A DNA stretch of 31,198 bases from an uncultured cyanobacterium. GTDB taxonomy: Bacteria; Cyanobacteriota; Cyanobacteriia; Cyanobacteriales; CAWCAG01. Shown here piece by piece: positions 9,305 to 31,198 of this stretch. Both the position numbers and the translations under genes were made by a program. Under the pieces are notes generated by a model, which saw only the letters and a program-made list of their open reading frames with translations, was not told where the DNA came from and searched no databases. The stretch's first letter is position 1, and the number at the start of each line of letters is the position of its first letter. The stretch spans positions 1 to 31,198 of the forward strand of contig CAWCAG010000008.1 in NCBI GenBank assembly GCA_963793425.1, given 5' to 3'.

Positions 9305-12300
9305 TTGATGTTAATGAAAGCCTGTTCACGTAAGCTAAATACTTTTTTGCAAACAGCATCCTTAAATGAAACAACAGTTCGATTCTTAAGGAACTCAATC
9401 ACATCTGAGAATAGTGTCGATACTTCCCAAACTATAGACTTAGAACTACTGCAATCAATTGCTAGCGCCTCTGACAGAGTAAATCTAGAAACTATTAATT
9501 CAGTAGAATTATTAAGTATTGCTAAACACCCTATTAGTGGACAACACCAAGAATTAACTAGTAAGCAAATTTCTCTTTCTCAAGAAGATTTGCAAACATT
9601 GCCGAGTGATCTTAACGAGGAAAAATTGTTTTGGTGGTTATGGCGCTTTTATCCAGAAGTATGCAACAAAGTTAACTCACAAGCTTTAGTAACACCCCAA
9701 CATGGCGTATTACCAGATTGCCCTCAACACAGTTATACCAGTACAGTATCTGCACTAACAGGAGCAATGTATCCAGAAAGCTGGAAAGGTAATGAACCAG
9801 AACAACCTTACCTATTGCTGTTCACATTCTCTCCGGTTCAGGAGTTTATCAAAGCTTCCCGTAAATTCCTAGACTTTTGGTCTGGTTCCTATCTGCTCCA
9901 TTACCTCAGTGCTAGACTCTGCTGGTATGTAGCTCAAGAATATGGCCCTGACGCAGTGGTCACTCCTTCATTGTGGGGACAAGAAATCATTGATGCTCTT
10001 CTGCTACAAAAGTACTCAGACTTCAGCGAAAGTTTCAGGCATTTTGCTGAAGACGGTTGTGACCCCAAAACTCGCTACAAGAATAAAAAGTCCACATCCT
10101 TAACCACAGCAGGTTTTCCCAATACTATTACTATCCTTGTAGGTAACAAAGAAGAGGCTCAGGAGTTAGGGAAAAAATTAACTGAGCAACTAGTTGAAGA
10201 ATGGAGTGCGATCGCACTCAAAGTAAAAGAAAATATTAAAGAAAAGACAAGAGTTTATCTAGAGAATACAGATACTTGTGAAGAATTGCTCAAAGATTTT
10301 TCCTCCAGCCAAGAAGAGTTAGAGTCCAACCGGGAAGAATTAAGAAAACTAAGACAGCCTGAATGTTGGGCATGGAGTAAACTCTGGGAAGCACAGATTA
10401 ATAATAGCTGGGAACCCTACTGGTGTGCTGTTCCTTTGGGTAGTCCGGAAGAAGAATTTAGTATCGCTGAAGATGAACAACGCAAGTTTGACCAAAAATG
10501 GATTGATGCTCAAGAAAAGGTAGCCCAAACCAGACCGGATATTAGGCCTCCTAGCGAAGCAGAAAAAAACATTTACACATCTCTAAATGTAGGAACTTGG
10601 TGGGGTTCAGTACAAGCTCGTTTAGGACAAGCCATACAAGCAGTTAAGAATACTCGTAACTGGCAAATTCCGGCTGCGCCAGGGGAACGTTCCACTATCT
10701 CCGGTAGATTTAGCGCTGTGCATCCCTTTTTACTTTATAGAGATAAGTACAAGGAAGGAGGAGGTTTAGGGTCAACTTCAATGCGCCTATTTTGGCGAGT
10801 GATGGCAGAGGTTTACCCAGGATTATTTAACGGCTCAGAGAAACTCAATGCCATTGAACTAACTAAGCGTATGGCTTGGTTTTATGGAGGTGTTGCAGAG
10901 ACTTTGGGCATGGGAGAGGTAGAAGAAAAAGAAGAAGTAAGTGAAGAAGTTAACCAAGAGTTAGAGATAGGTGTGGCACAAGACCTAGAAAACCTAGACT
11001 ATGAACAGATGGTTCGTTTTCCTAATCTCAGTTCCATTGCTGCTGCTAGATTTACACACAATGACTGGGAGCAAGGTACAAAGAAAATGATTGCTTACTG
11101 GCGCATTTTAGCTAAGGAAATTACAGCCAACTTAAGAGAAAAACGAGATATTTTTGGTAGTAGGACTCGTGGCCGGGAGTTCCATGTACCGAAAACAGAT
11201 GCTGCAATCACCAAAAAAGAACCAGGTAACAAATACAACGGAGTGATGTTTTCTAGTAAATGGCTAGCAGACGATATGGGACTAGAAATTTCAGACCATA
11301 ACAACTTAAGAGGATTAGTAGACGAAGCCCATAAAAAGGCTGGTTTTGGCAATAGTTCTCCTGGTGATTGGTGGGTGATTCTCCTTGGTGATGGCGATGG
11401 CATGGGACAGTATGTTAATGGTCGCAAATTGAAGGAATATCAAGAATATCTAGCTAATTTGCAGCCTGAAACTTACCAAAGTGTAAAACTCAATAGTGAA
11501 GAAGAAACAGAATTTAAAGAACAGTTCCAAAAGTTGCTAGAAACTAGAAAGCGTATGGGGCCAGCTACCCACATTGGCTTAAACCGGGCCCTCTTAGATT
11601 TTTCTAATCGTCTTGTTCCCTACCTAACAGAAAAACGCTTTTGTGGAAAGGTTATCTACAGTGGTGGAGATGATGTCATGGCAGTCCTACCTCTAGAAGA
11701 CTTGCCAGAATATTTGCGATCGCTAAAATCAGCTTGGTGTGGTGGCACAGATCCGGGTGAGGAGTTTGCTAACCAAGCAACGGAAGATAATCCTAGTGGT
11801 AGTGGTTACTGGTGTTCTAGAGGAGAAGTAGAAGGAGTTCCTAAGCGCCCTCTATTTACTATGGGGAAAGATGCCACTATGAGTGTTGGTGTTGTTGTTG
11901 CCCACAAAAGTGTCCCTTTACCTACAGTATTAGAAGCTCTTTGGGATGCAGAAAAGGAGCGGGCAAAAAAGTTGTTAGGTACACCAAACAAAGATGGTCT
12001 GTGTTTCCGAGTTATTTACAGTTCTGGCAACGTTCTAGAAGCATTGATGAAAGGTCATTTGTTAGATTCTTGGTGGGACTTCGTTAATACGCAACAGAAA
12101 GCTGAACTTACCCCTTTATTATATCGCCTTGCAGAGGAACTTCCTCAACACGCTGTTATTACTAAAAATCTAGAATTGGTCAAAAAAGCTGCCCAGGTAA
12201 TTATCAACAAAAGGGAAGAAAGCAAGCAAGTAGAAGGCATTGAACAGTTACCAAATTGGTTAAATGAATGGGAGAAGTGGGCCTATCAAGCTGCTGAACA

Positions 12301-12430
12301 ACATCGCCTAGCAGGAGACAAAGGTAAGGCGTTAGGTACACAACTAACAGATTTAAAAAACCTCCTCCGCTTCACTGCCTTCTGGCTAGACAAAATGGCC
12401 GAACGAGAAAAATGGCTTGCTGATGACTAA
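9305..12430 (+). CDS. cas10: Type III-B Cas10/Cmr2 (palm/cyclase motif intact, no HD motif)
   Basis: FSPVQEFIKASRKFLDFWSGSYLL, GDGDGMG and YSGGDDVMA motifs. Start could be 9305, 9308 or 9314. Confidence 0.95.
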   Translation: MMLMKACSRKLNTFLQTASLNETTVRFLRNSITSENSVDTSQTIDLELLQSIASASDRVNLETINSVELLSIAKHPISGQHQELTSKQISLSQEDLQTLPSDLNEEKLFWWLWRFYPEVCNKVNSQALVTPQHGVLPDCPQHSYTSTVSALTGAMYPESWKGNEPEQPYLLLFTFSPVQEFIKASRKFLDFWSGSYLLHYLSARLCWYVAQEYGPDAVVTPSLWGQEIIDALLLQKYSDFSESFRHFAEDGCDPKTRYKNKKSTSLTTAGFPNTITILVGNKEEAQELGKKLTEQLVEEWSAIALKVKENIKEKTRVYLENTDTCEELLKDFSSSQEELESNREELRKLRQPECWAWSKLWEAQINNSWEPYWCAVPLGSPEEEFSIAEDEQRKFDQKWIDAQEKVAQTRPDIRPPSEAEKNIYTSLNVGTWWGSVQARLGQAIQAVKNTRNWQIPAAPGERSTISGRFSAVHPFLLYRDKYKEGGGLGSTSMRLFWRVMAEVYPGLFNGSEKLNAIELTKRMAWFYGGVAETLGMGEVEEKEEVSEEVNQELEIGVAQDLENLDYEQMVRFPNLSSIAAARFTHNDWEQGTKKMIAYWRILAKEITANLREKRDIFGSRTRGREFHVPKTDAAITKKEPGNKYNGVMFSSKWLADDMGLEISDHNNLRGLVDEAHKKAGFGNSSPGDWWVILLGDGDGMGQYVNGRKLKEYQEYLANLQPETYQSVKLNSEEETEFKEQFQKLLETRKRMGPATHIGLNRALLDFSNRLVPYLTEKRFCGKVIYSGGDDVMAVLPLEDLPEYLRSLKSAWCGGTDPGEEFANQATEDNPSGSGYWCSRGEVEGVPKRPLFTMGKDATMSVGVVVAHKSVPLPTVLEALWDAEKERAKKLLGTPNKDGLCFRVIYSSGNVLEALMKGHLLDSWWDFVNTQQKAELTPLLYRLAEELPQHAVITKNLELVKKAAQVIINKREESKQVEGIEQLPNWLNEWEKWAYQAAEQHRLAGDKGKALGTQLTDLKNLLRFTAFWLDKMAEREKWLADD

Positions 12431-12442
12431 TTCCTAATCTTT

Positions 12443-12464
12443 TTTAACTTTTGACTTTTGACTT
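12443..12464 (+). repeat. Short heptamer tandem repeat (TTTGACT, STRR-like)
   Basis: tttaact-tttgact-tttgact in the cas10-cmr3 gap. Confidence 0.5.
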
Positions 12465-12466
12465 AA

Positions 12467-13584
<1,118 letters not shown>

Positions 13585-13585
<1 letters not shown>

Positions 13586-14478
13586 TGAAATCTCAACTTG
13601 CTTATCTCTATTTACTTTCTCCTTTGCATACAGGGGGAACTAGTCAGGAAGGAAATGTTGTGGGGATTGCTAGGGAAACCCATACAAACTTCCCTTACAT
13701 TCCTTCTAGTACAATTCGGGGTCGTTACCGGGCTGATGTAACTATCAATGTCGATACTTCTGATAGTGATGCACTTACAGAGGCCAAAATTAAAAGAATC
13801 AAGCTTTTCGGTCCAGATTTGGATGATTTGAAAAACAATAGTTTTCGAGAAGACTATGAAGTACTCACAGACCGAAAATTAACTCAGTTAGAGCAAGGTA
13901 GTATTTGGATTGGGGATGGTTCCCTGCTTTGGTTGCCTGTTGCCTCTCTTAGTCACGGCGTTGTCTGGATTAGTTGTCCTTTGCTGCTGCAACGTTGGTC
14001 AAAGCTTAGTCAAGGTAAAGCTAGCATTAATGTACCGGAATATAGTAGCAGCATTGAAGGGGATGATGTTTATCTCAAAGATGCTATTCTTCCTAAGAAT
14101 GAGCTAAAAAAGTGGTCTAAATGGGAAGATTTTTTACCTCCTGGTGACCATACCGAAATTGTCAATAAAGTTATCGTTTTACCAAATCAGCATTGTGAAA
14201 CCTTGATTCAAATGAGTTTGTGGCGACAGGTGAAGGTCAAACTAAGCGAACATAAGGTAGTTACAGATGGTAGCTTTCGCTATGAAGAAGCAATTCCTCC
14301 AGATACTTTGATGTACTTTCCTTGGGGAATTACAGCCCAAGCTAATGGCAAGACACAAGAACATTACCAAGATTTTCGCCAGCTTCTAGAGGATAACTCT
14401 TTGCTGCAAATTGGTGGTCAGGAAAGCTTAGGTAGAGGGTTCGTTGAACAATGGTTAGCAAATAATAACAAGGAGTAA
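13585..14478 (+). CDS. cmr4: Cmr4 (Cas7-group RAMP)
   Basis: SPLHTGG...IARETHTNFPYIPSSTIRG, YEEAIPPDT and QIGGQESLGRG. ATG overlaps the cmr3 stop (TAATG). Confidence 0.93.
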
Positions 14479-14483
14479 CAAGC

Positions 14484-14945
14484 ATGAGTTTTGACCCCCG
14501 TACTGTTAGTACCCCTGTGTATGAGGCATTGCATAAGTTGCGATCGCAATACGACAATTTTCAAGAATTAGAAAAGTATAAAGCCCATCTACAAGAACAT
14601 AAAAGTCAAGCTGTGCAACTCTACAGTTACATCTCTAGTTGGGGTTTGATGCGCCTGAAAGGGGAAGAAATTGCCCTTGATAAGTGGACAGATACAACTC
14701 CTTCTTTTAGAGAAAGAATTGAAAAGTCTCAAGAAGGAAGAAGAGAAGTAATTGAAACTTTCTTTCAGTGTTTGCAGAAGGTGTCTAAAGTTAACAACCT
14801 GGCTGAAGAAGTGGGTTTGGCAACTCTTAAGAATATGAAGCATAGTCAATATCTGGGCTTAACAGGTTTAGCCCTAGCTTTAGCTAAAGAGTTTAGTTTC
14901 TGGGCTGATGCTGTCTATCATGATATTAAAGCAGGAGAGTCTTAG
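14484..14945 (+). CDS. cmr5: Cmr5-like small subunit (Cas11)
   Basis: Helical 153-aa protein between cmr4 and cmr6; SSWGLMRL and YLGLTGLALALAKEFSFWA. Confidence 0.75.
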   Translation: MSFDPRTVSTPVYEALHKLRSQYDNFQELEKYKAHLQEHKSQAVQLYSYISSWGLMRLKGEEIALDKWTDTTPSFRERIEKSQEGRREVIETFFQCLQKVSKVNNLAEEVGLATLKNMKHSQYLGLTGLALALAKEFSFWADAVYHDIKAGES

Positions 14946-14946
14946 A

Positions 14947-16773
14947 ATGGTCTACAACAATGACAACCAACCTCCCTCTCCTTGGTTAAAGGGACAAAGG
15001 GGATTTACACCTGCTAAAGATGCTGGTTTTGCTGAGTATTTGCGCTGGATGCGTTCTCCTTTACCAGTGAGTGATGCTAAAACATCAGTTGATAAAAGTA
15101 ATGATAAAGAGAACAATTTTACCAAACTACAACTGCTACATTTCGCTGCTGCTGGTGGCAATGGTGTTAATTATCGCACCTATTTCCAGAGACTGAACGA
15201 ACGTACTAAGAAGATTGCCGGAGAAGATAATACTTTTGCCGCAGAATGTCCTTGGCGTATGCGAGTGGGAGGAGAGACTGGGCCGGAAAATATTCTTTTA
15301 CCAGCTTTCGATAATTTAGGATTTCCTTACATTGCTGCTAGTAGTTTACGGGGAGTGGCAAGGCATCAAGCTTGGCGAGAGTTACTCGAAGAAAAACTTA
15401 AGGATGCAGATAATGAAGAGAATGCGAAACAGCAGGCAAAAAAGGAGTTAGAAACTTACTTCGGTTCTCTCGAAGCAGCAGAAGAAGATCAAGCTGGAAA
15501 AATAGTATTTCTTGATACCTATCCTGATTATAAAAGTTGGGGAAAACAGGGAAGAGGTTTAGCAGTAGATATTGCTAATAGTATTTGGGGTTGGCAAGAT
15601 GATGAACCAAAATATAATCCTAATCCGAATAGTTTCCTTTCTCTACGAAAACCTAAATTTATCATTGGTTTGCGTCTTACTTCCCGTGCTAACCAGGAGA
15701 TGTTAGATAAGGTTAAGAGTTGGTTAATTCGCGGTTTGCAAGCGGGGATTGGTTCTCAGGTTAATAGTGGTTATGGGGAAATGGTAATTAAGGGTGAAGA
15801 GGTCACAAGTCAACCTTTCCTAGAACTTAAGTTTACTCTGCAAGGACAGCTTATCCACAGTAACCAGAAGTTTAGAAATCTCAGAAACCCTCACCAAAAC
15901 GGTAACAACCCTACATACCCGGAACCAGAAGTACGTCCCATCGCTTTTAAGTCTATGTTGCGTTATTGGTTTCGCACCATTACTTTAGGTTATTTGTCTC
16001 CCTCTGATGTACAGACTTGGGAAGCAAATTTGTTTGGTGGCATTGAACCCCCAACTCAGGGACTAGCTAAAGTACGGACAGAAGAAAAAGGGCGCTTACG
16101 TTATGAAGAGCAACCAGCAGATCAAGATTGTTTACAACAACAAGGTATTCTTAAGCTACTTTGTTCCTCTGAAGTATCTTCAAACCAGGAAGCAGATGTT
16201 AAGAAGTTGCTGAAAAACCTAACCTGGTTGATGTTTCAGCTTGGAGGAGTGGGGCAAGGGGCGAGAAGACCTCTTCATAAGCGTAGTAGTAACCCCTATT
16301 ACCGTGGTACAAAGTTACGAGTAGAAGGTGGTGATGCTTTTTGGCAGCTACCAGATAGTCTTGATGAGTTTAAAATTCGCTTCCAAGAAAGGTTGACTGG
16401 TTTTTGGCGGGCGTTGGCTTGTTTGCGATCGCAAGAAAATAAATTACCCCTTCTTTCTGTTGCTAGTTCAACAGCCTGGGCAGAAGCGATGGATGTTAAC
16501 TGTAGAATTATTGTTTGTGCTGGAGAGATGGTAAATAATAAGCCCAAGGCTTTAGCAGTTTTGCATAGTGATACTCTCAATCCCAATAAAAGTACCGAGG
16601 GATACAATATTCAGCTTTGTGGTAAAACTGGCGATCGTTCTCCTGTTTGGATAGCAGATTTGGGTGAGTATCAAGTGGTGACTGTTTTTGGTGTTGAAAA
16701 TCAAACTCGTTTTCGGTTTTTAAAAACTTTGGAAGAGGAAGCGGACGAGTATCAGCAAATTTTTCCCGGTTAA
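14947..16773 (+). CDS. cmr6: Cmr6-Cmr1 fusion RAMP protein
   Basis: Two RAMP domains: PYIAASSLRG...GIGSQVNSGYG (Cmr6) and FKSMLRYWFR...LGGVGQGARR (Cmr1). Likely start is ATG 14947, right after cmr5. Confidence 0.88.
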   Translation: MVYNNDNQPPSPWLKGQRGFTPAKDAGFAEYLRWMRSPLPVSDAKTSVDKSNDKENNFTKLQLLHFAAAGGNGVNYRTYFQRLNERTKKIAGEDNTFAAECPWRMRVGGETGPENILLPAFDNLGFPYIAASSLRGVARHQAWRELLEEKLKDADNEENAKQQAKKELETYFGSLEAAEEDQAGKIVFLDTYPDYKSWGKQGRGLAVDIANSIWGWQDDEPKYNPNPNSFLSLRKPKFIIGLRLTSRANQEMLDKVKSWLIRGLQAGIGSQVNSGYGEMVIKGEEVTSQPFLELKFTLQGQLIHSNQKFRNLRNPHQNGNNPTYPEPEVRPIAFKSMLRYWFRTITLGYLSPSDVQTWEANLFGGIEPPTQGLAKVRTEEKGRLRYEEQPADQDCLQQQGILKLLCSSEVSSNQEADVKKLLKNLTWLMFQLGGVGQGARRPLHKRSSNPYYRGTKLRVEGGDAFWQLPDSLDEFKIRFQERLTGFWRALACLRSQENKLPLLSVASSTAWAEAMDVNCRIIVCAGEMVNNKPKALAVLHSDTLNPNKSTEGYNIQLCGKTGDRSPVWIADLGEYQVVTVFGVENQTRFRFLKTLEEEADEYQQIFPG

Positions 16774-16850: not shown

Positions 16851-17810
16851 ATGAGATTTATTAGCCCAAAAACTGACTTTGCTTTCAAAAAGATATTTGG
16901 TTCTAACCAAAGTAAAGGTATCCTGATTTCTTTCCTTAATGCCATCATTTATTCAGGAGATCCTGTTATTCATGATCTAGAAATTATTGACCCTTATAAT
17001 GCTGCTGAGTCAGTGGGTTCTAAAGATAGTTATCTTGATGTTAGAGCAATCTTGCAAGATGGGACTACTGTTATTATTGAGATGCAAGTGTGGCAAGTGG
17101 AAGCCTTTCGACAAAGGATTGTTTACAACCTCTGTAAAACCTATGGTAATCAGCTTGCTAAGGGAGCAAAGTATACTCGTCTTAGCCCTGTTATTGCTTT
17201 AACTATTACTGACTTTAATTTGTTTCCTACTACAGAAGATGTGATTAACTACTTTCACTTCCAGGAAGTAACTAAACATATTTCCTATCTAGAAGATGAG
17301 TTAAGGTTGGTGTTTGTGGAGTTACCTAAGTTTACTAAAACTCTTGAAGAGTTAGAGACTATTACAGACAAATGGATTTACTTTATTAAGGAAGCACCAA
17401 GCTTAGAAGTAATACCAGAAAAGATGAGGGAAGTACCTCAATTAAAACAAGCTTTAGGCATTGCTAACCAAGCTGGCTTGAGTGCTGAAGAGTTGGAAAA
17501 GATTCACCGACAAGAGATGTTTTGGGAGGACAAGAAGAGTGGTTTAAGGTTTGCGGAAAAAGAAGGAGAAGAAAGAGGCATACAAAGAGGTATACAAGAA
17601 GGTAGGCAAGAAGGAATTATTTTGGGGGAAAGAAGGTTTCTTGTGCGACAACTTGAACGCCGTTTAGGAAAGTTGAGTTCGGAGGCTTTTACTGCTATAG
17701 AAAGTTTGGATTCTGCAAGTTTAGAATCGTTAGGAGAAGCGATGGTTGATTTTAAGAGTAGTGAAGATTTGCTTACCGAAGATAATGGGTTTAAAGCCCC
17801 GTCCTTTTAG
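16851..17810 (+). CDS. Rpn-family PD-(D/E)XK nuclease / putative transposase with DUF4351-like tail; last codons supplied by the IS end
   Basis: PKTDFAFKKIFG, LDVRA...IEMQ, FVELPKF and EGRQEG repeats; native sequence stops at the IS boundary 17776. Confidence 0.9.
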   Translation: MRFISPKTDFAFKKIFGSNQSKGILISFLNAIIYSGDPVIHDLEIIDPYNAAESVGSKDSYLDVRAILQDGTTVIIEMQVWQVEAFRQRIVYNLCKTYGNQLAKGAKYTRLSPVIALTITDFNLFPTTEDVINYFHFQEVTKHISYLEDELRLVFVELPKFTKTLEELETITDKWIYFIKEAPSLEVIPEKMREVPQLKQALGIANQAGLSAEELEKIHRQEMFWEDKKSGLRFAEKEGEERGIQRGIQEGRQEGIILGERRFLVRQLERRLGKLSSEAFTAIESLDSASLESLGEAMVDFKSSEDLLTEDNGFKAPSF

Positions 17811-18205
17811 GGCGGCTTTTCTTGATTCTTAATATACTCTTTTAGGACTGATAGCGGCGCACCGCCAACAGAAATAGCAAAATAGCTAGGACTCCACAAC
17901 GACTGCTTGTGGGGTTTTTTAAATCTAGCTTGTCCATAACGACGACTGGATACCCCTTTTAAGGCATTAATTGTTTGAGAAATAGATAATTTAGGTGGGT
18001 ATTCAATCAGCGAGTGAATATGATCTGCTTCTCCATTAAACTCTAAAATTTGAAAATCCATTTTTTTTGCAACGTCTGTAAAGGATTTTTCGATTAAGTC
18101 TAAGCTTTCAGTCGTTAATACAGGCATACGATATTTAGTTACGCAGACCAAATGAATCTTTAGGTCTGTAATACTATGCCTTCCTTTCCGGAATGGGGTT
18201 GTCAT
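17807..18205 (-). CDS. tnpA: IS200/IS605 Y1 HUH transposase
   Basis: HLVCVTKYR, DHIH (HUH), LWSPSYF and YIKNQ. Confidence 0.95.
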   Translation of the reverse strand: MTTPFRKGRHSITDLKIHLVCVTKYRMPVLTTESLDLIEKSFTDVAKKMDFQILEFNGEADHIHSLIEYPPKLSISQTINALKGVSSRRYGQARFKKPHKQSLWSPSYFAISVGGAPLSVLKEYIKNQEKPP

Positions 18206-18256
18206 TTGCTGTAGACCAATATAGTATACAAGTACAGACCAATTGTAGCATTAGCC

Positions 18257-19480
18257 ATGAAAGCTAGATACAAATTCCGTTTCTATCCAACAAGCCAACA
18301 AAAGCAGCTTTTAGCTCAGTTGTTTGGTTGTGTTCGTGTAGTTTGGAATGATGCCCTGGCTATTTGCAAGCAGTCTGAAAAGCTACCCAAAAACGGAGAC
18401 TTGCAAAAAACCTGCATTACCCAAGCCAAGAAAACTGTAGAACGTATTTGGTTAAGTGAAGTTTCCAGTACTGCCCTACAGCAATCCATTGCCGATTTAG
18501 GAGTTGCTTACAAAAACTTTTTTGACTCGTGCAAGGGAAAACGAAAGGGTAGAAAAGTTGGTTATCCCAAGTTCAAAAAGCGCACAAGCGACCAGTCAGC
18601 AAGGTTAACCCGTGGCGGGTTCAAACTCACTGGAGAGAAAGTCTATCTAGCCAAGATAGGAGATATAAAACCTATCTGGTCGAGAGAACTTCCCTCAACT
18701 CCGAGTTCTGTCACAGTAATCAAAGACTGCGCTGATAGGTACTTTGTGAGCTTTATCGTCGAGATTAACCCAAGCAAATTGCCAGATAATAACAAAAGTA
18801 TAGGCATTGATTTGGGTATAACTGACTTTGCCACTACGAGTAATGGAGAAAAGTATAAAGCCCCTAAGCCGTTAAAGCGTCGGCTTAAAAGGCTTAGGAA
18901 GCTGCAACGTAACCTAGCTAGGAAAACCAAGGGTAGTGAAAGGAGAGAAAAAGCCAGAAAGCGGGTAGCCAAACTTCATGCCAAAGTAAAAGATACTCGT
19001 GCAGACTTCCTTCACAAACTGTCTACTAAAATAATCCGTGAGAACCAAACAATTGTTTTAGAAGACTTAAACGTATCTGGTATGGTCAAGAACCGTAAGC
19101 TTTCTCGTGCTATCAGTGATTTAGGTTGGCGTGATTTTAGAACCATGCTAGAAGCCAAATCCGTTATGTATGGTAGAGAGTTCAAGGTAATTAGTCGTTG
19201 GGAGCCTACTAGCCAGACTTGCTCTTGCTGTGGTTTCAGAGGTGGCAAGAAAGAACTCGGAATTAGGAAATGGACTTGTTTAAATTGCGGCGCTGTACAT
19301 GATAGAGACATCAACGCCGCCATAAACATCTTGGTCGCGGGTGGACAATCCGAGACTTTAAACGGACGTGGAGGCAGGCGTAAGACTATCTCGGTAGCAG
19401 CACCCATTGAAGCGTCAACTCGCCAAGAATTCAAACAACGACAGTTGCTTGAATTCTTATTGGAATCCCCGATCCTTTAG
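18257..19480 (+). CDS. tnpB: RNA-guided endonuclease TnpB
   Basis: RuvC motifs GIDLG, VLEDL and DRDINAA, plus a CSCC/CLNC zinc ribbon; all appear intact. Confidence 0.95.
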   Translation: MKARYKFRFYPTSQQKQLLAQLFGCVRVVWNDALAICKQSEKLPKNGDLQKTCITQAKKTVERIWLSEVSSTALQQSIADLGVAYKNFFDSCKGKRKGRKVGYPKFKKRTSDQSARLTRGGFKLTGEKVYLAKIGDIKPIWSRELPSTPSSVTVIKDCADRYFVSFIVEINPSKLPDNNKSIGIDLGITDFATTSNGEKYKAPKPLKRRLKRLRKLQRNLARKTKGSERREKARKRVAKLHAKVKDTRADFLHKLSTKIIRENQTIVLEDLNVSGMVKNRKLSRAISDLGWRDFRTMLEAKSVMYGREFKVISRWEPTSQTCSCCGFRGGKKELGIRKWTCLNCGAVHDRDINAAINILVAGGQSETLNGRGGRRKTISVAAPIEASTRQEFKQRQLLEFLLESPIL

Positions 19481-22131: not shown

Positions 22132-23863
22132 ATGGCAATTCTCATCGCGAATATTGGCACTTCTGACCTAGCAATTAAAATTAATAATTACTACATTCCT
22201 GTTGGCTTTGATCGCAGTGAGCCTAACTTAGATAAATCAGGTTTAACTCCGGAAGAAAACCAAACTTGGCGAGATAAAGATAAGCTAGTTGCTGAAACAC
22301 TAAAAGAAGAAATAGGACTTGAGTATAAAGTTGAAGAGAATAGAAAAAAAATACAGTATAAATATTCTTTCCGGGAATTAACAGAAAAACTTTGGCAAGT
22401 ATATCAAGACCAGCCATCTTTGTGGGAACCACGTATTCGCCCTGGTCGTATTTGGGGTGTAATTCAAACTGCACAACTTCAATTTTCTGTTGAAGAAGTT
22501 TATCTATTTGTCACCAATCAAGTAACAGATAAAAACACTCAAGGACACTTTGCTGACTCTTACTATCTTTTTCGTATCTTACAACTTTGGTTTAAAAAAC
22601 AATTACCAAAATTAACTCTCAAAGCAATTACTTTACCTGCTGAAGTACCTGCTAATAACCAAGATGCTCTACTTGACTATTATCATCAATTTTTTAACCA
22701 AAACATAACTAGTTCAGATACACTCCTTCTAAGTACAAAAGGGGGAACTCCTCAAATGCAAACTGCTTTGCAAATTCAATCTCTTTCTTCTACCGCAGAG
22801 AAACAGCTTTTTTTATCGCCGCAGTTAGCAATTAAACGTATTTTAGCTGGTGAATATTCCCAATGCTACTTTCACTTCTTACTGGCGTTATCTTCGTAGG
22901 CAAAAGTATCAAACAGTAAACCAAATTTTGCAACGTTGGGATTTTGAAGGCTCTAGAGAGGTTTTACTTGATTGGCAAAATACTTTAGACTTTTTAAGTG
23001 ACAATATTACCGACGATAGTACTCTTCCCAAGAATAGTAGATTAATTGCTAGTGTTAATCAGAGTTTAGAGTTTGCTTTACGCTACTTTAATTTAGATAT
23101 TAAAGGGGTAGAAAATTTACCCTTAACTGAAGATTTAAAATGGATAAAAGATATTAAAAGTAACTACGACCCTCTACTCAATTTATATACTCAGTGTTGT
23201 ATTTTCTGGAATCTTAACCAAATGGCTAACTTTCTTTCTCGTTTAGGTTCCTTTTGTGAAGAAATCCTTCACGAGTTAATTCGTCAGTTAGGAGGAGAGA
23301 AATATTTTGATAAGCAGTCTGCCCCCCATGATTGGCATTTATGTAAACAAAGAGTAGAAGAAAAGCTTTGGCAGGAGTTTGCTTTGCTAGAACGTAGTAC
23401 TAATTATAGTTTTGCTAGGTGGGACTTTCAAAAGAAACCTCGGTATCGCCTACCAGGACGATTTAGCAAGCGCAATTTTGTTGAAGCACTCGTAAAATAC
23501 CAAGGTAGAGACAATGCAGCTTGGCAAGATATTATTAAATACTTAACCCAGTTAGATTATTGGTTAGAAAAGCGTAATCAATTAATCCACAGTGCTGAAG
23601 GTATCTCAAAAGAAAGAATGAAGAAAATCTTAGCAGAAGATAGAACAAACAATAACAAAAAACCAGACAAATTTAGCCCTAATCCTCACCAAGCCTGTGG
23701 ACGAGATGAAATCTTAACTGTTATGACTATCTTGTTGCAAACCACCTACAAGCTTTTATCTCAGCCCTCTCCTCACCATCTTAACCCCGATGCTCCCTAC
23801 TACATTTATTCCCAAATAGCTAATTGGATACAGCAAAAATTAAAACCAGAAAAACTGGCCTAG
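22132..23863 (+). pseudogene. CARF-HEPN (Csx1/Csm6-like) effector split by a 1-nt frameshift
   Basis: ORF1 has CARF-like IANIGTSD and TKGGTPQM; ORF2 has a HEPN RxxxxH (RNQLIH). Removing one base near TTT 22870-22872 joins them into a 576-aa frame. Confidence 0.75.
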
Positions 23864-24224: not shown

Positions 24225-26231
24225 ATGGTCACAAGTCATTTCTTAATTGGTGTACCTGGTAGTGGTAAATCGACTTTTGCCCAAACCCTAGCCCAAGCAA
24301 TACCTGATGCTGTCATCATCTCCACTGATGCTATTCGTAGTAAATTGTTTGGTCAGGAGGATATTTTAGACCAATGGCCAGAAGTGGAAGCAGAACTGAT
24401 TAAGCAAATGGAAGAGGCTGTAGCTACCCAAAAAACGATTATTTATGATGCTACTAACTTTAAGCGATCGCTACGTTTGGAATTACTGCAAAAGTTAGGT
24501 CGTTTGCAATTGCAGTGGATAGCCTGGTATCTCAAAACTCCCTTAGAAGTTTGTTATCGCCAGAATCAAAAACGCAACCGTCGAGTACCGGAGGAAGTTA
24601 TTGACCAAATGAATAGGTATTTGCGTTCCTTTCCTCCCCACGTAGCAGAAGGTTTTGTCACGGTGAAAGTTATTAAACCTCACCAGGAGAAGTTTGCCCC
24701 TAATGCTATTACTAAGGTGATGGAAAAACTGCCCTTAACTATAGCTACTCGCTCTAGTCGCACTACCCTAAATTCTCATCTCCAACTCCACCAATATTCT
24801 CTTTTAGTAGATTTTGAAAGGTTAATTTACTTAATTTCCTTTCTCATTAACTTTAGCTCCTCTCACCCTCCTCTTTCTGTAGTGGAAATTACTGCCGAGA
24901 TAGGGCAAGAATACGGCCAAGTCTATGCTGATGAAAATGCGATCGCCACTGACTTAGCTTGGTTGGAAAAAAATGGTTTTTGTAACAGCTTAGGAAAAGG
25001 AGAAGCTACTACCCAAGAAATTACCTTAATGCCCCTTGGGGAGCAAGAAATTATTACCCATCAATACTCAGATAGAGAACCCTTCTTACGGCTTCTTGGT
25101 ACTATTCGTTTCCTCATTCATCACCCCTTCACCTACAACTCTGATGCTGGTGGTAGTCTCAACAGTTTGATTGCAGCCCTTAGAGAGGAAGGAATCATTA
25201 CCTACAACTACGCTGATAGAGTTCGTAAAGATATCGAAAAAGTACTCAAGCCCTACGGTATTATGCCCAATCATCCCCAAAAGAAAGGTTACTACGCTGG
25301 AACAGCTATCTTAAGTGAAACGGAATTAAAGCAGGTTTTTTCTGTCCTCCAGTCCCAAGCTGCCAGCTTAAATGACCCTGTGGCAGTAGCAGCCTATCAA
25401 AAACTAGGTGAACGTTTAGGGCTGAGTAAAATCGACCAAGAAAAAGTCTACCCCATTCGTGCCATTGGTACTAGTTCGATTATTGACACTAACCGTTTAG
25501 CAGGTAGCGCCTTACTCAATAAATTAGAAGTGGTGGAAAAGGCTATTTATGCAGGAGAATTATTGGAATTAAAGCCCCTGGCTGGTGGTGGTAGGTTTGC
25601 TAGTGATGAGGAAGAATATTTCCGTGCTTTTCCTTTGCAAATTGTCTTCCATAATTTAGCTTGGTATCTCGGCTATGAAAAACAGCTTGCCAATAAAGAA
25701 ACCCTTTTTAAGTTTCAACGTCTTGACCGTCTTTTTTTGGCTAGGAAGTTAGGTAAAGCTAGGGGGAGAAACAGCACTGAAAAATCCCTTACCAAGTTGC
25801 AAAGACTCTACGAAGCTAGTGCAGGTATTTATTTAGGAGCAACCCCTCAACAGCAACAAGCCTATCTCAGTAGGGATAAAAAGCGCCGTTCCACAACAGA
25901 AACAGTGGTGGAGTTGTGGTGCAATGACTACAGTTTTCAGTTTATCAGCGAAGGAACAAAGCGTTTCCGACCCCAACAGTTAGCTATGTCCCCTGCCCCT
26001 GGTAAGTCATCTTCCCGTATGTTTACCCTCAAGCCTACAGGGGATAAAAAGTTTCCTTATCGTTTTCAGGTTACTTTACCCTCTTGGTCTTTGGATGATG
26101 TTGATTTACTTACCTGGGTAGTTGCTTGGGGAGAAAAAATTAAGGTTATTCGTCCTCAGAAACTGGTTGATTATGTTACTGATTTTGCTATTAATCTTTC
26201 TCAACTTTACGAAGTAGGAAAACAGGATTAA
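24225..26231 (+). CDS. P-loop kinase (AAA_33/PNK-like) - HTH - WYL domain regulator
   Basis: GVPGSGKST, IYDATN and RNRRVPEEVI (kinase); FHNLAWYLGYE...FQRLDRL (WYL); WGEKIKVIRPQKL (WCX). Confidence 0.9.
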   Translation: MVTSHFLIGVPGSGKSTFAQTLAQAIPDAVIISTDAIRSKLFGQEDILDQWPEVEAELIKQMEEAVATQKTIIYDATNFKRSLRLELLQKLGRLQLQWIAWYLKTPLEVCYRQNQKRNRRVPEEVIDQMNRYLRSFPPHVAEGFVTVKVIKPHQEKFAPNAITKVMEKLPLTIATRSSRTTLNSHLQLHQYSLLVDFERLIYLISFLINFSSSHPPLSVVEITAEIGQEYGQVYADENAIATDLAWLEKNGFCNSLGKGEATTQEITLMPLGEQEIITHQYSDREPFLRLLGTIRFLIHHPFTYNSDAGGSLNSLIAALREEGIITYNYADRVRKDIEKVLKPYGIMPNHPQKKGYYAGTAILSETELKQVFSVLQSQAASLNDPVAVAAYQKLGERLGLSKIDQEKVYPIRAIGTSSIIDTNRLAGSALLNKLEVVEKAIYAGELLELKPLAGGGRFASDEEEYFRAFPLQIVFHNLAWYLGYEKQLANKETLFKFQRLDRLFLARKLGKARGRNSTEKSLTKLQRLYEASAGIYLGATPQQQQAYLSRDKKRRSTTETVVELWCNDYSFQFISEGTKRFRPQQLAMSPAPGKSSSRMFTLKPTGDKKFPYRFQVTLPSWSLDDVDLLTWVVAWGEKIKVIRPQKLVDYVTDFAINLSQLYEVGKQD

Positions 26232-26519: not shown

Positions 26520-27066
26520 GTTTTTATTCTGTTAGTTTTTCCGTTATGGAAAAGAGTTAAAAAAGAGCAAGTTGACTCTAGTCAGGCAAGTTTCCATTCT
26601 GTTAGTTTTTCCGTTATGGAAAAGACGGAAAATCGAAGTTGAGTTACTGAACAAAATAAAGTTTCCATTCTGTTAGTTTTTCCGTTATGGAAAAGAAGCC
26701 ATGGATTGTACTCCTTGCCGGACGGTAAGTTTCCATTCTGTTAGTTTTTCCGATATGGAAAAGAGTTGCGAAATCTGCGGGCAAAGCGAAGGCTTCCAAT
26801 GGTTTCCATTCTGTTAGTTTTTCCGTTATGGAAAAGGAGCATAGTATTCATTGCGTATAGCAGAGCTGTACTGTTTCCATTCTGTTAGTTTTTCCCATAG
26901 GGAAAAGGTAATCCGTGCTGAGGTCAGTATTGTTTCCGACACGGAGGAGGTGTTTCCATTCTGTTAGTTTTTCCGATAGGGAAAAGCTTTTGAACAAATT
27001 GCAGATATCAAGGTTCAGTTAATCTTTAAAGTTTCCATTCTGTTAGTTTTTCCGTATATGGAAAAG
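26520..27066 (-). CRISPR. CRISPR array 3: 8 repeats (consensus CTTTTCCATAACGGAAAAACTAACAGAATGGAAAC), 7 spacers
   Basis: Repeats begin (+ coordinates) at 26520 (degenerate), 26590, 26661, 26729, 26802, 26873, 26952 and 27031; leader on the right. Confidence 0.96.
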
Positions 27067-27261
27067 GCTGCCCTCTGAAACCCTTACCCTGACTGCGCTC
27101 CTCAGCGAATTTTCGTGGGATAGCTTTTTAGGGTCAAATAGTTGACACAGATTCTCAATAACGAGAAACTTCACCCACCTCAACCCCTTACTGGGAGAGT
27201 CATTCGCGGGATAGCACGAAATAATGCGGGTTTCAGCGTTTTACAACTTCCCACGAAAGAG
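27067..27261 (-). promoter_or_regulatory. Leader of CRISPR array 3
   Basis: Homologous to the leader of array 2. Confidence 0.8.
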
Positions 27262-27445
27262 GAAGTTATAACGAGCTTTGACTATTATAACTCAATTCAT
27301 AAACTTCAAGCAACCTCTCATCAGCAAAACTGCTTAATTAAGAGCAAATTTAAGCAAAATTTATAAACAATACAAACCAAAATTACTTTAATTCCTTGCC
27401 AGATAAGCGCTACAGCCATTACTCAACCAAATTGACCCCATCATC

Positions 27446-27567
27446 AAGAAAGTTCTCTCCCTAACCTGAAGCTAAGGAAAGAACTTTCCCAGAGTCACAT
27501 CGTTACTTAGAGTAACTTTGTTTTCTTGTATGTTTCCATTCTGTTAGGTTTCCTAGTAATAGGAAAC
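27446..27567 (-). ncRNA. Solitary CRISPR repeat variant + 41-nt segment + long hairpin (candidate crRNA-like RNA)
   Basis: 27532-27567 reads GTTTCCTATTACTAGGAAACCTAACAGAATGGAAAC on the minus strand; hairpin at 27446-27490. Confidence 0.55.
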
Positions 27568-27639
27568 ATTTATAGAATAATGAAAAGAAAAAAGGAAAGA
27601 AATATCATCTTGCTATTGATATTTCCAGCAAACCATGTA

Positions 27640-27954
27640 TCACTCCTTGGGCTTTTTATCTTTACAAAGTTGTCCCCACAAATCTTCAGGAATCTCTTCA
27701 AAATGCTCTAATAAAAAATTCATTACAGCTAAATGACGTAAATCATTGGCAGTAGGGCGACGATAATAACGTCCCTGGCGAAACCAACCTTGCACAGTAG
27801 AACGAGAGCGGTTACAGATTTCAGCCATTTGTTCGTACTTAACACCCCACTTAAAGTAAAACTTTTGAGGAGTCATGCCCAACTCACAGTAACTATAGAG
27901 ACTGATTAGCTCCAACTCTCTGTCGCCAATCCTACGACTCTCACTCATCTTCAA
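27640..27954 (-). CDS. Helix-turn-helix domain protein
   Basis: VKYEQMAEICNRSRSTVQGWF is an XRE-like HTH pattern; overlaps the upstream gene's stop. Confidence 0.8.
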   Translation of the reverse strand: MKMSESRRIGDRELELISLYSYCELGMTPQKFYFKWGVKYEQMAEICNRSRSTVQGWFRQGRYYRRPTANDLRHLAVMNFLLEHFEEIPEDLWGQLCKDKKPKE

Positions 27955-28477
27955 ACCTCTCTAAATCGTACTCCCAAGCCGTATCTACTAAACACCAACG
28001 GGAAGAAAGGGAGTCAGGGTCTAGGAGGATTAGATAGCACCACATCCACCTTCCCGACTCCGGGGCATAGCCATAGAAGCGCCCAATAACCATGCCCCAA
28101 TCTGTTAACTCTGGTTCTTCCAAAGGAGTCCAACGAACAATGGAACCGAAAGGAAACTGAGGAGGAGTAGCATCAAGGAAAAAAGCTGGTGCATCAGAGG
28201 GAAGAGGTAACTGTTGGGCGTGTTGTAGAAACTGGGAAACCACTTCTCCTTGCCCATCGCGAATACTATGGCCATAAACTCGGAAACATTCAGGATGGAC
28301 GGAAACGGTAAGATGCTTAATCAACAAAGTAGCTAAAGTTTCTAAATCTTTAACATCAGATGGATGAGAGTTAATCGTTGCTAGTTTTTGCAATAACTCA
28401 ATGATGCCAAAATCATTCAAGGCTTTGTAGTAGCCCGGAGGTTGTTGAGTTAGATATTTGTGTTGATAGTTGAACAT
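27941..28477 (-). CDS. Hypothetical protein with SH3/KOW-like C-terminal region
   Basis: PQFPFGSIVRW...WGMVIGR...WCYLILLD pattern; overlaps the HTH gene start. Confidence 0.7.
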   Translation of the reverse strand: MFNYQHKYLTQQPPGYYKALNDFGIIELLQKLATINSHPSDVKDLETLATLLIKHLTVSVHPECFRVYGHSIRDGQGEVVSQFLQHAQQLPLPSDAPAFFLDATPPQFPFGSIVRWTPLEEPELTDWGMVIGRFYGYAPESGRWMWCYLILLDPDSLSSRWCLVDTAWEYDLERFEDE

Positions 28478-28865: not shown

Positions 28866-29144
28866 TCAAATTACAAAAGCTGGGTCATCAACAGAAAACT
28901 CTGGCTGCAAACCTAAGATGAGAACTTGCTTACGGGTACGCTCTGTCAGAGGATAAAACCGCAGTTGGTCTTCTTCTTCGTTAATCAGTTTCTGCAACCT
29001 TCTTTGTAACTTGAGATATTCAGCTTCCTCTGCCATGACTTCAAAAACTGACTTTTGTACCCTCAAGCCATAAGCTTCCAGCAATTTGGCTACCTTATTG
29101 CGACGGCTGTCTTGCACAATGTCGTAGCAAACTAGATAAAGCAT
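28866..29144 (-). CDS. cas2: CRISPR-associated endonuclease Cas2
   Basis: YLVCYDI, RVQKSVFE and DQLRFYPL. Confidence 0.96.
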   Translation of the reverse strand: MLYLVCYDIVQDSRRNKVAKLLEAYGLRVQKSVFEVMAEEAEYLKLQRRLQKLINEEEDQLRFYPLTERTRKQVLILGLQPEFSVDDPAFVI

Positions 29145-29195: not shown

Positions 29196-31198
29196 TCACT
29201 TCTCCCAAAGCATAGGACGATAGTAGTCTGCATCTCCCATTAAGCAAGTAACGTACTCCCTTACTTGCAACTCTAAGCAGCGACGCAGGGTAACTTTGTA
29301 ACCTGTGTAGGGATGGGTCATTTCACTACGGAGTTTTTCTTCCCAATGTTTGAGGAACTTCTTGAGGGCATCAGGCAGGAGATAAACACCACCTCGTTCG
29401 TCTTGAGGAGTGAAATCTTCAGGAGTGAAGATTTTCTTATTCACCAGGTAAGCCACTTGGGAATCTACAACTTGAGCGCGAAACTCTTCCATTAAGTCAG
29501 AAACTAAGGCAGGATGGTTATCACGGGGGACGTGGAGGCTACCAAAATGGGTATGTAAACCTACAGTTTCAATAAAAGAGTGAACAATCTGACTAAGGAG
29601 GGTGTAGCCTAAACTGAGTAAGCTATTTACTGGGTCAGTGGGTGGACGTTTGCTACGATGCTCAAAGGTAAAACTAGAGTTAAACAGAGAACCCAGTCCC
29701 CGGAAATAAAGCTTTGCAGCATTACCTTCATAGCCTCGTAAGGAATCTAAAGATTCTGCTAGGGGTAAGTTATCAATAATTTGGGCAATTTCATTGATGG
29801 CAATAGTTGCACATTCACTCCTACGACGACGGTTTAAACGCATAAGCAGAACACGGGAGTTATGTAACTTCGCCCTAACAATAGTTTCTGCTTGTTGACG
29901 GGTAAATTCTGGGTCTTCAGCACACCTAGTTTGCTGTGCCAAGTAAGCCACCTTGGCCTGTCCTTCTGTTTCCAAACGACCGAAGTAACGACCCCTTTGG
30001 GAAAGATACAGGACAGGGATGCGCCGGGATAAAGCTAGTTTGATTGCGCCGTGGGTAATGTGGCAACAACCAAAGAGAATAATCTGACTAACCCGGTTGA
30101 CGGGGACTTGACAACGTAACTCACCGTGGAAAAAGATCCGGAATTGGTAGTTTTGCGCCCTTAACAGGGAACCTTGTTCGATTAGATAAAGAGTAGTCAT
30201 TTCTTCTGCAAAGTAGTATTTAGGGTTAATAAGAGTTGGTACAGAAGCCTGTTTCTGTAAGTTGCAAACCTTGGGAGGACGGGAGAGAAAGGAATGAATG
30301 TAAATAGGTCGGGGTTTGCGGGGTACACCAGAGGGATCTAGGATTAACTTTCCTTTGCTAGGAAGTCGGGGGGGTGGTGCAAACACCTTGCCTTGGCGAA
30401 ATTGGTAGCCAAGAAAGGTAAACTCTTCTTCTGGGGAGAAGATGCGGGTTTTCTCTGGTTGGAGGTTGAGGAATATCTTTCTTACCCAAATAGCTAGTAA
30501 GCTTAAGGTATATTTAGCTTCTTCTAGGCTCGAACAAGCTACGACAAAGTCATCACCGTAGCGAACAAACTTGATGCCATTACTAAGGCAACTATGGTCA
30601 AATTCGTTCAGATACAAGTTAGCTAAAGCACCGGAAAGGATTGAACCTTGCAAAACCCCTTTTTTAGGGTAGAGACGGCGACCTTGGATAACAATGCCTG
30701 ATTTGAGTTGTTGCCCAATCAGTTGTAGAATAACTTCCTCAGTTTCCATCTGCTCCAACGCAGCTAGTAGTAGAGCTTGGCAGATACTATCAAAGAAGTT
30801 AGCAATGTCAGATTTAATCACCCAACAAGGCTGCATTTGGTAGTAGAAGTAGAAGTGTTTGACAGCGATTTGAATACCACGGTTAGGGCGATAGGCATAG
30901 CTGCAATCAGCAAACTGTTTTTCTAAAGAGAGATAAATTTCCTCTAGCAGCCACCTTTGGACTATGCGGTCTTTAACTGTGGGTATTCCTAGTAAGCGTT
31001 GACCACCATTGCGTTTGGGAAGATAGAATCCTCTAGCTGGGCTAGGAAAATAGGTTTCTTCTCCTAACTGTTGTTGCAGGGTCTTGAGTTGCTCTGTGGC
31101 AACCCCTGCAAACAGGTCTGTAGTGATGCCATCAATTCCTGGGCTACGACTTCCTTTGCGAACCAAGTTCCAAGCATATTTAAGTTCAGGAAATGTTA
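29196..31198 (-). CDS. cas1: Reverse transcriptase-Cas1 fusion (5' end outside window)
   Basis: Group II intron-like RT motifs (PGIDG, LGIPTVKDR, QGSILS, RYGDD, FLGY) fused to Cas1 (TLYLIEQG, RGYEG, NSLLSLGY, DLMEEFR). The frame is open to the window edge. Confidence 0.95.
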   Translation of the reverse strand, partial: TFPELKYAWNLVRKGSRSPGIDGITTDLFAGVATEQLKTLQQQLGEETYFPSPARGFYLPKRNGGQRLLGIPTVKDRIVQRWLLEEIYLSLEKQFADCSYAYRPNRGIQIAVKHFYFYYQMQPCWVIKSDIANFFDSICQALLLAALEQMETEEVILQLIGQQLKSGIVIQGRRLYPKKGVLQGSILSGALANLYLNEFDHSCLSNGIKFVRYGDDFVVACSSLEEAKYTLSLLAIWVRKIFLNLQPEKTRIFSPEEEFTFLGYQFRQGKVFAPPPRLPSKGKLILDPSGVPRKPRPIYIHSFLSRPPKVCNLQKQASVPTLINPKYYFAEEMTTLYLIEQGSLLRAQNYQFRIFFHGELRCQVPVNRVSQIILFGCCHITHGAIKLALSRRIPVLYLSQRGRYFGRLETEGQAKVAYLAQQTRCAEDPEFTRQQAETIVRAKLHNSRVLLMRLNRRRRSECATIAINEIAQIIDNLPLAESLDSLRGYEGNAAKLYFRGLGSLFNSSFTFEHRSKRPPTDPVNSLLSLGYTLLSQIVHSFIETVGLHTHFGSLHVPRDNHPALVSDLMEEFRAQVVDSQVAYLVNKKIFTPEDFTPQDERGGVYLLPDALKKFLKHWEEKLRSEMTHPYTGYKVTLRRCLELQVREYVTCLMGDADYYRPMLWEK

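Follow-up and report, generated by a model that had tools for sequence, protein, structure and literature searches.

A solitary CRISPR repeat behind the adaptation cassette of cyanobacterial type III-B loci: a conserved candidate for a one-guide crRNA-like unit

Regulatory RNAs which resemble CRISPR RNAs (crRNAs) and originate from standalone repeats located outside the arrays are established for CRISPR systems of types I, II and V, where CreA and CreR (types I and V-A) and the small CRISPR-associated RNA (scaRNA, type II) are the described representatives. Type III crRNAs carry a 5′ tag only and have their 3′ ends trimmed, and small RNAs derived from 3′ untranslated regions (UTRs) form one more family, released from mRNAs by endonuclease cleavage. 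Solitary repeat units are also described for RNA anti-CRISPRs (Racr) (Camara-Wilpert et al., 2023), while mini-arrays near 10–14% of type III loci were found, in the part of the survey considered here, to have neither positional conservation nor enriched clades nor targets and were judged degraded (Shmakov et al., 2023). Here, we describe an element that differs from this picture. It is situated in contig CAWCAG010000008.1 of an uncultured cyanobacterium, analysed at its full length of 31,198 bp and further referred to as the window, and consists of a solitary CRISPR repeat (SR), a guide-sized segment and a hairpin, standing downstream of the adaptation cassette of a type III-B locus. Judging from its structure and conservation the element appears to be a conserved and functional RNA, most likely a working one-guide unit and not the debris of a lost array. 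Search of the literature gave no account of this element or of the combination of solitary repeat, type III system and cyanobacteria, and the supplements of Shmakov et al. (2023) may list such loci.

The genome harboring the window comprises 5.28 Mb in nine contigs; the window is contig C8, and C2, C5, C6 and C9 denote other contigs of the same genome (G000). On the minus strand, the stop codon of the last gene of the cassette, which encodes a putative helix-turn-helix (HTH) protein, is followed by 72 nt, SR, 41 nt of the guide-sized segment, the hairpin, about 95 nt, a leader of about 285 nt and CRISPR array 3 (coordinates are collected in Table 1). The last 16 nt of SR (CTAACAGAATGGAAAC), further called the handle, exactly match the array-3 repeats; with up to two mismatches allowed, this 16-mer occurs nine times in the window (eight array repeats and SR), with none expected from 100 shuffles. 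The stem of SR (GTTTCCTA/TAGGAAAC) forms perfect 8 bp closed by the loop TTAC, and the stems of array-3 repeats are shorter, 6–7 bp (TTTTCC/GGAAAA). Over 27430–27575 the predicted fold energy of the minus strand is −51.7 kcal/mol (z −6.8, matched by none of 200 shuffles) and that of the plus strand −32.9 kcal/mol (z −2.9), and since the minus-strand fold is much better, the strand asymmetry brought in by G-U pairs is real. The 3′ hairpin accounts for approximately 21 contiguous pairs, G-U included, and is strand-specific. Thus, the arrangement proposed in an earlier note, made from the sequence alone, is confirmed in all its parts: a 36-nt repeat with the 3′ end of array 3 and a new perfect 8-bp stem, placed 72 nt after the HTH stop and followed by 41 nt and a hairpin of about 20 bp that pairs fully only as minus-strand RNA.

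SR is a single repeat and not an array, the nearest other repeat being 465 nt away, behind its own leader. The leader homology common to five loci of the genome (blastn matches of the array-3 leader at C2:6297-7064, C2:12063-12818, C8:21490-21719 and C9:677659-677880) ends near 27352, about 180 nt short of SR; for this reason SR is not part of a leader, and no leader adjoins it. A promoter-like site is present inside the array-3 leader (27137–27109). SR is oriented in the sense of the array repeats and not antisense to them, so that an anti-repeat of the trans-activating crRNA (tracrRNA) or scaRNA type is not found, and Rfam models at gathering thresholds gave no matches in the window. Two further ideas were tried and rejected. 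The 3′ hairpin is not a degenerate second repeat, as it has no likeness to the repeat, and pairing of the new 5′ arm (GTTTCC) with the tag (GGAAAC) in an anti-tag manner is not reproduced by other units. On the opposite strand, 13 nt past SR, starts a 43-aa open reading frame (ORF; 27580–27711, plus) opposite the 3′ end of the HTH gene, its predicted product combining a basic N-terminus with a hydrophobic core; it was considered as a cis-antisense small toxin and dropped as probably spurious, with no counterpart seen by eye in Gloeothece.

Conservation of the position was assessed in two samples of loci. The first was collected by the HTH protein: out of 336 relatives confirmed by tblastn in cyanobacterial genomes the best 80 loci were kept, and 14 from relatives and from the genome under study were added, giving 94. 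In 23 of them cas2 adjoins the HTH gene in the order cas1-cas2-p87-(p178)-HTH, p87 and p178 being the genes for proteins of 87 and 178 aa, while the other 71 contain p178-HTH or HTH alone. A script searching outside arrays, on the same strand and not more than 800 nt downstream, for a hairpin followed by the ..GAAAC handle gave hits in 14 of the 23 cas-linked loci and in none of the 71 loci without cas2. For two of these 14 loci (L005 and L017) the script pointed to a neighboring site, so that the position of the true repeat was set by eye, and inspection by eye added three cas-linked loci with weaker stems or one mismatch in the handle (L022, L039 and L067). In total, 17 of the 23 cas-linked loci possess a lone repeat of the same strand not more than about 440 nt downstream of the HTH stop, one of the 23 having only 197 nt inspectable downstream; these 17 correspond to 15 distinct sequences, because L001/L010 (paralogs) and L002/L018 are identical pairs. 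A laxer detector, for which a terminator was also required, again gave 0/71 for the control loci. The second sample was collected by p87. Among 401 cyanobacterial genomes 19 encode this protein, representing 12 of 156 genera, and 21 of the 22 loci have cas1-cas2 and the HTH gene as its neighbors on the two sides. It included 17 loci from genomes outside the first set, 16 of them with the HTH gene, and the repeat, the segment and the terminator were found together in 12 of these 16; two more are doubtful and two have none, one of the latter offering only 403 nt to examine. The samples overlap slightly, the unit of L106 being identical to that of L086 from the first set. All five inspected plasmid loci (two from Gloeothece verrucosa PCC 7822 and one each from Anabaena cylindrica PCC 7122, Nostoc TCL26-01 and Nostoc UHCC 0870) contain the unit in stretches without any annotated feature. 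Thus, a standalone repeat of the cas locus keeps its position after orthologous HTH genes (17/23, 12/16 and 5/5 cas-linked loci versus 0/71 controls), which is the outcome of a check proposed by the earlier note.

The same note had admitted that SR might turn out to be the last repeat of a deleted array. A second repeat was found in none of the 34 units seen, and no relative had an array at this position in the loci inspected. The assumption of a functionless relic, left by an array that decayed or recombined, would agree with the opinion of Shmakov et al. (2023), as far as that survey is considered here, that the standalone repeats and mini-arrays of type III systems are probably products of degradation, and with the appearance of two other lone repeats of the genome, which look like collapsed arrays. 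It is hard to reconcile with the recurrence of position, strand and architecture in at least 12 genera, with handles matching the local arrays, with hairpins maintained by different sequences, with the covariation of the terminator and with the lack of the repeat in 71 control loci; moreover, the loci have diverged in sequence and do not represent one recently spread identical cassette. Conservation, therefore, largely refutes the relic, which we regard as scarcely probable at all, and with respect to positional conservation and enriched clades this cyanobacterial clade is an exception to what is stated in the considered part of the survey.

The pattern of conservation inside the unit is uneven. 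In all 14 loci having an array in the fetched DNA, 13–16 of the 16 nt of the handle are identical to the local array repeat, and the handle itself differs between loci (..AGAATGGAAAC, ..TTAATGGAAAC, ..TTGTTGGAAAC and ..GGTGTTGAAAC), so that lone repeats vary together with the arrays of their own loci. The stem of the lone repeat often differs from that of the local array and yet still pairs, including paired changes (ACCAATT/AATTGGT to ACCGATTA/TAATCGGT; AACTTC/GAAGTT to GACTTC/GAAGTC), and lone repeats do not share the 5′ part of array repeats. The segment after the repeat occupies 26–70 nt with a median of 30 (25 of 29 units, those with a hairpin and T-run recognized by script), which is close to the spacer length, and according to the consensus fold of 12 Nostocales units it is predicted to be single-stranded between the repeat and the terminator. 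In the terminator helix of the same 12 units 96.7% of cells pair, compared to 50% or less if partner columns are slid; 5 of the 10 pairs display compensatory changes, and a single U-G pair never varies. Units of Gloeothece have a 3′ hairpin similar to that of the window (GGGAAAG..CTTTCTCTCCC), and, judged by its place, the latter seems to stand where the relatives have their intrinsic terminator. The first 10 nt or so past the repeat are alike across genera (AyyTGCrTTT), the beginning of the segment in the window (ATACAAGAAA) giving a loose fit only.

Taken together, fold energies, pairing and covariation of the terminator argue for selection at the level of RNA transcribed from the minus strand, and the strongly selected part is the repeat, that is, the hairpin with the exact handle, on the strand of the operon RNA. 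With such selection, the element has to be recognized by the machinery acting on array repeats. Such features bear on two other explanations. If the element worked at the DNA level in adaptation, as a seed or anchor repeat, an integration site or a docking place of the integrase, its constant neighborhood with the adaptation module and the array with its own leader that often follows it (in the window, L022 and L045) would be accounted for. For this role one would have to disregard the lack of a second repeat in 34 units and of leader homology beside SR, the loss of the 5′ part of the array repeat, and the strand-specific structure with G-U pairs, which along with the covarying terminator points to RNA; we consider it highly improbable. 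The element might also be a self-encoded decoy similar to RNA anti-CRISPRs, which soaks up Cas6 or Cmr subunits and thereby damps type III interference. Its anatomy resembles the solitary repeat units of RNA anti-CRISPRs, as presented in the considered part of Camara-Wilpert et al. (2023), and its stem, with 8 bp versus 6–7 bp, is stronger than those of the array. However, the unit resides inside cas loci beside adaptation genes in many genera and in none of the entries of the phage collection or the viral contigs, and a host-encoded inhibitor at a fixed place needs a rationale which the data do not supply, making the decoy very unlikely.

As to the place of the unit in the transcript, the 72-nt gap that separates SR from the HTH stop contains an inverted repeat (ATATCA..TGATAT) and then a T-rich tract. 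This site is a diverged copy of a motif of approximately GTCAAnnTCA-N-TGACCTGTCTT type conserved downstream of HTH genes: as a regular expression it was detected after the HTH stop in 31/33 HTH-only, 19/38 p178-HTH and 14/44 cas-linked loci. The palindromic motif takes the same place in L003, L017, L045, L097 and the majority of HTH loci, preceding a 57-aa ORF or the lone repeat, and could be a (weak) operon terminator or a candidate operator of the HTH protein. Promoter scan revealed no sigma-70-like site directly upstream of SR, where a weak TATTCT is noticed by eye at a distance of 7 nt, and alignment of the regions upstream of the units gave no common promoter block. In Nostocales the HTH gene is followed by a 57-aa ORF, the last one of the operon, and the repeat stem begins right at its TGA; since the repeat begins at the last stop codon it must be cotranscribed with the operon. 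Sequence arrangement thus suggests that the Nostocales unit is the operon 3′ UTR and shares the operon terminator, which fits the other option of the earlier note, a processing site in the 3′ UTR.

In our favored reading, to which we attach roughly even confidence, the lone repeat is a processing site at the 3′ end of the operon, and cleavage there would supply Cmr, the effector presumed to use this RNA, with a crRNA-like RNA containing one guide. Transcription of the minus strand would be provided by operon read-through or by a weak own promoter, and the repeat hairpin with its handle would be recognized by the machinery maturing the neighboring arrays. The predicted cut, 8 nt before the end of the repeat, would give the operon mRNA a new 3′ end, formed by the repeat hairpin, and set free a crRNA-like downstream RNA composed of the 8-nt tag ATGGAAAC, a guide-sized single-stranded segment (41 nt here) and the 3′ hairpin. 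Because type III crRNAs need no more than the 5′ tag and undergo 3′ trimming, such composition should suffice for Cmr. The position of the cut is deduced from 8-nt 5′ tags described for cyanobacterial Cas6-processed crRNAs in the considered part of a preprint (Reimann et al., 2020). Supply of one fixed guide would thereby be coupled to expression of the adaptation cassette. At the sequence level the unit has the type III crRNA features of an 8-nt tag and a guide of about 30 nt or more (41 nt in the window), and from these and the above properties we infer its transcription, cleavage, loading on Cmr and downstream effect.

A number of observations weigh against this reading. The repeat is absent from five cas-linked loci, all of them belonging to Microcoleus, and the counts of loci overstate the number of independent events because related loci are not independent. 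A terminator scan of 27000–28000 gave 0 sites, so that the window has the full 3′ hairpin without a U-tract, and the 41-nt segment includes a 6-bp hairpin of its own (27502–27516). The window lacks cas6, and the sole cas6 found in the genome (TIGR01877, PF01881; C9:3585-4409) belongs to a type I-D locus on C9. Cas6 enzymes of Anabaena 7120 are described as acting on remote arrays and leaving 8-nt tags, according to the considered part of Reimann et al. (2020, preprint). The C9 locus itself (C9:1-13600, L099) is a complete type I-D system with cas3′, cas10d, csc2, csc1, cas6, cas4 and cas1.

The guide-like segment raises further objections of the same kind. In six pairs of units its identity is 38–86%, to be compared with 64–80% at third codon positions of the HTH gene, 86–95% in the repeat and 20–50% past the terminator; past its first 10 nt or so it thus seems to evolve at approximately the synonymous rate, which argues against a long conserved base-pairing target. 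Paralogs of Gloeothece verrucosa PCC 7822 (L097 5321–5420 and L098 5300–5400) are about 98% identical from the HTH gene through the repeat and 5 nt more, followed by about 50 nt that cannot be aligned and then by a part with about 75% identity, and here the guide-like part looks replaced rather than drifted. No target above chance was found anywhere in the material searched, covering nine genomes, the loci and the phage collections. With blastn-short, the 41-nt segment and an 86-nt query gave chance level in the genome under study. Ungapped complementarity of the 41 nt to both strands of C8 and C2, with and without G-U pairs, stayed within the shuffled null, and complementarity scans in 17 fetched loci never exceeded the maximum of 30 shuffles. 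BLAST of post-repeat segments in G005/G041/G001/G008, in G008, in G000/G001 and in G246/G341/G110/G410/G209 also gave chance level, and all these genome searches retrieved only the queries themselves, orthologs and chance matches; no match to the unit or the segment was obtained in the phage collection, and none by exact pattern in viral and metagenome contigs; all these target searches are blind to seeds under about 12 nt. For the C6-type segment, which belongs to a unit of another repeat family, an 18-nt exact match was registered at C5:2101814-2101831 (E 0.034, low complexity, probably by chance). The earlier note had seen no target in the window by eye, and genome-wide search for complementarity to 27491–27531 likewise gave none above chance. 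Its suggestion of a CreA/CreR/scaRNA-like regulator or antitoxin implies a complementary target as the defining feature. Since none above chance emerged from the window, from C2 and the genome as a whole, or from eight further genomes and 17 loci, a CreA/CreR-type regulator is not supported.

Drift of the guide-like segment and the lack of a visible target make the main rival an element serving mRNA processing or stability only. The nuclease acting on the repeat would set the half-life or the 3′ end of the operon mRNA, with the fragment released as a by-product, and this would create feedback between crRNA-processing capacity and the adaptation genes. Abutment of the repeat on the stop codon in Nostocales, strong conservation confined to the repeat and the failure to find a target are what such an element would display. 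The segment, however, measures at least 26 nt in every case and is unstructured by prediction, its first 10 nt or so are common across genera, and the full crRNA-tag handle is kept, which a mere cleavage site might not need. On this balance, we rate processing alone as rather unlikely, and the one-guide crRNA-like unit remains our preferred interpretation.

The unit and the genes adjoining it are listed in Table 1 along with the effector genes.

Table 1. Features of the window related to the solitary repeat and to the type III-B system
Feature	Position	Strand	Basis or remark
RT-cas1 (RT, reverse transcriptase)	29196-31166	minus	Pfam Cas_Cas1 1.3e-89, RVT_1 2e-32; frame open to contig end
cas2	28866-29144	minus	Pfam CRISPR_Cas2 1.6e-25
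p87, RelE/YoeB/YafQ-fold, 87 aa	28547-28810	minus	AlphaFold2 (AF2) model and Foldseek
p178, 178 aa	27941-28477	minus	Overlaps the start of the HTH gene by 14 nt
"HTH" gene, 104 aa	27640-27954	minus	Last gene of the RT-cas1 - cas2 - p87 - p178 - HTH cassette
Inverted repeat and T-rich tract	27581-27622	minus	Just past the HTH stop
Solitary CRISPR repeat (SR), 36 nt	27532-27567	minus	8-bp hairpin and 16-nt 3′ handle
Guide-sized segment, 41 nt	27491-27531	minus	Internal 6-bp hairpin
Long hairpin	~27446-27490	minus	Folding
Leader of array 3, ~285 nt	27067-27352	minus	blastn homology to four other arrays or single repeats of the genome
CRISPR array 3, 8 repeats, last degenerate	26520-27066	minus	
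Type III-B effector genes: cmr2/cas10, cmr3, cmr4, 153-aa ORF, cmr6-like 621-aa RAMP (repeat-associated mysterious protein)	9305-16773	plus	Pfam, NCBIfam

The label of the "HTH" protein is weak, given that its match to Pfam HTH_23 (E 0.004) falls below the cut-off and that its AF2 model, with a predicted local distance difference test (pLDDT) of 82, has XRE-type HTH proteins as best fold matches at E 0.2 or worse. For p87 there is no Pfam or NCBIfam match. Its AF2 model (pLDDT 89.4, predicted template modeling score (pTM) 0.80) retrieved with Foldseek from the PDB RelE (2khe) on top, with a template modeling (TM) score of 0.76 and E 2e-4, then RelBE2, YafQ and YoeB, and the CARF-RelE protein Cami1 was also matched; the model thus allows a confident prediction of the RelE/YoeB/YafQ toxin fold. 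The p87 gene occurs only in the cas-linked form of the cassette, and p87 may be the Csx18 of the literature, which in the considered sources is a small adaptation-associated gene of cyanobacterial type III-B systems; a cas1-cas2-csx18 cassette is reported for Anabaena 7120. Searches by Pfam, NCBIfam, PDB sequence and profile, and ESM Atlas assigned no family to p178.

The toxin fold of p87 suggests one more scheme, a guard circuit resembling CreTA at the RNA level, in which the action of Cas6 or Cmr on the lone repeat, at the 3′ end of the cas1-cas2-RelE-fold-HTH transcript, would hold the RelE-fold toxin module in check. Either the mRNA of the module would be cut or given a new end, or Cmr would be directed to a cis-antisense RNA. 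As a possible CreT counterpart, p87 is encoded in the same operon, and nothing in p87 is complementary to the guide segment. We consider such a circuit quite unlikely; if true, it would mean that loss or inhibition of the type III system frees the toxin, and the cassette would represent an addiction or anti-anti-CRISPR device with a single repeat at its core.

Elsewhere in the window two further CRISPR arrays are located on the plus strand, and an IS200/IS605 element with tnpA and tnpB (OrfB_IS605 and Cas12f-like TNB domain; 17807–19480) is inserted between the cmr genes and array 1. The plus-strand regions 22132–23863 and 24225–26231 contain possible type III ancillary genes, judged by weak matches: two adjoining ORFs resemble the Csm6 model, one its N-terminal and the other its C-terminal part, at E 1e-4 and 1.6e-3, which does not come near the cut-off, and an AAA-kinase protein of 668 aa is matched weakly by WYL. 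A 553-aa protein (7458–9119, minus) has the catalytic domain of ResT/TelK telomere resolvases (Pfam 1.5e-21), and the 31-kb contig with its type III-B system may be a linear plasmid or a phage-plasmid.

The genome has other copies of the unit and other lone repeats. The segment C2:58-4726 is a paralog of C8:26520-31198 with 95.8% identity, and over the stretch that begins with the HTH gene and reaches the leader a single base, inside the leader, distinguishes them; as the solitary-repeat units are identical, this pair is uninformative on selection. On C6, an HTH paralog is followed by a third unit, whose repeat belongs to another family. Within the window, a second lone repeat is located at 7072–7107 (minus; handle ..CTAGCAGAATGGAAGT, stem TCTCCA/TGGAGA) downstream of the ResT/TelK-like gene, with array-3-leader-like sequence before it and a 10-bp hairpin directly after (7159–7186 is listed with it). 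One more, at C9 ~677660–677880 (locus L100 ~7660–7880, minus), has about 220 nt of array-type leader and one perfect repeat without spacers, being a chromosomal orphan. By their composition, the repeats at C8:7072-7107 and C9 ~677660 look like a separate class, leader plus one repeat, of collapsed or empty arrays.

If the unit is indeed processed and loaded, a type III system would be able to carry a hard-wired, inherited guide derived from a single repeat, production of this guide would be tied to the adaptation operon, and a handle on the wiring of adaptation, toxin-like gene and interference would become available. As an unannotated element of about 100 nt in finished genomes, plasmids of culturable strains included, it is directly testable; culturable carriers of the unit include A. 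cylindrica PCC 7122 (plasmid pANACY.01), G. verrucosa PCC 7822 and a Microcystis strain. Among the described systems, CreA, CreR and scaRNA share with it a repeat-like sequence in the cas locus, conserved position, a spacer-sized segment and, as proposed for the unit, use of the effector's own way of loading RNA. However, CreA and CreR guides have partial complementarity to promoters of cas or toxin genes, which was not found here, RNAs of this type mostly possess two (pseudo)repeats instead of one repeat and a terminator, and their effectors bind DNA, whereas the unit belongs to an RNA-targeting type III-B system. With Racr it has in common the single hairpin repeat mimicking that of the host (the mimicry is evident in the sequence, and the contig itself may be a plasmid) and the short unit ending in a terminator, differing by being encoded in the cas locus at a fixed place, by its absence from the viral genomes searched and by a tail of at least 26 nt. 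Small RNAs derived from 3′ UTRs are similar in that the Nostocales unit starts at the stop codon and uses the operon terminator, whereas the cut signal is here a CRISPR repeat and not an RNase E site and the pathway would be that of a CRISPR effector and not of the Hfq type. Finally, an ordinary type III crRNA unit offers the same hairpin repeat, 3′ handle, predicted 8-nt tag and segment of spacer length; unlike it, the unit described here has no second repeat and no leader homology, does not conserve the 5′ part of the repeat, has its 3′ end set by a hairpin or terminator, and carries a "spacer" that is inherited and drifts by point mutation instead of being acquired.

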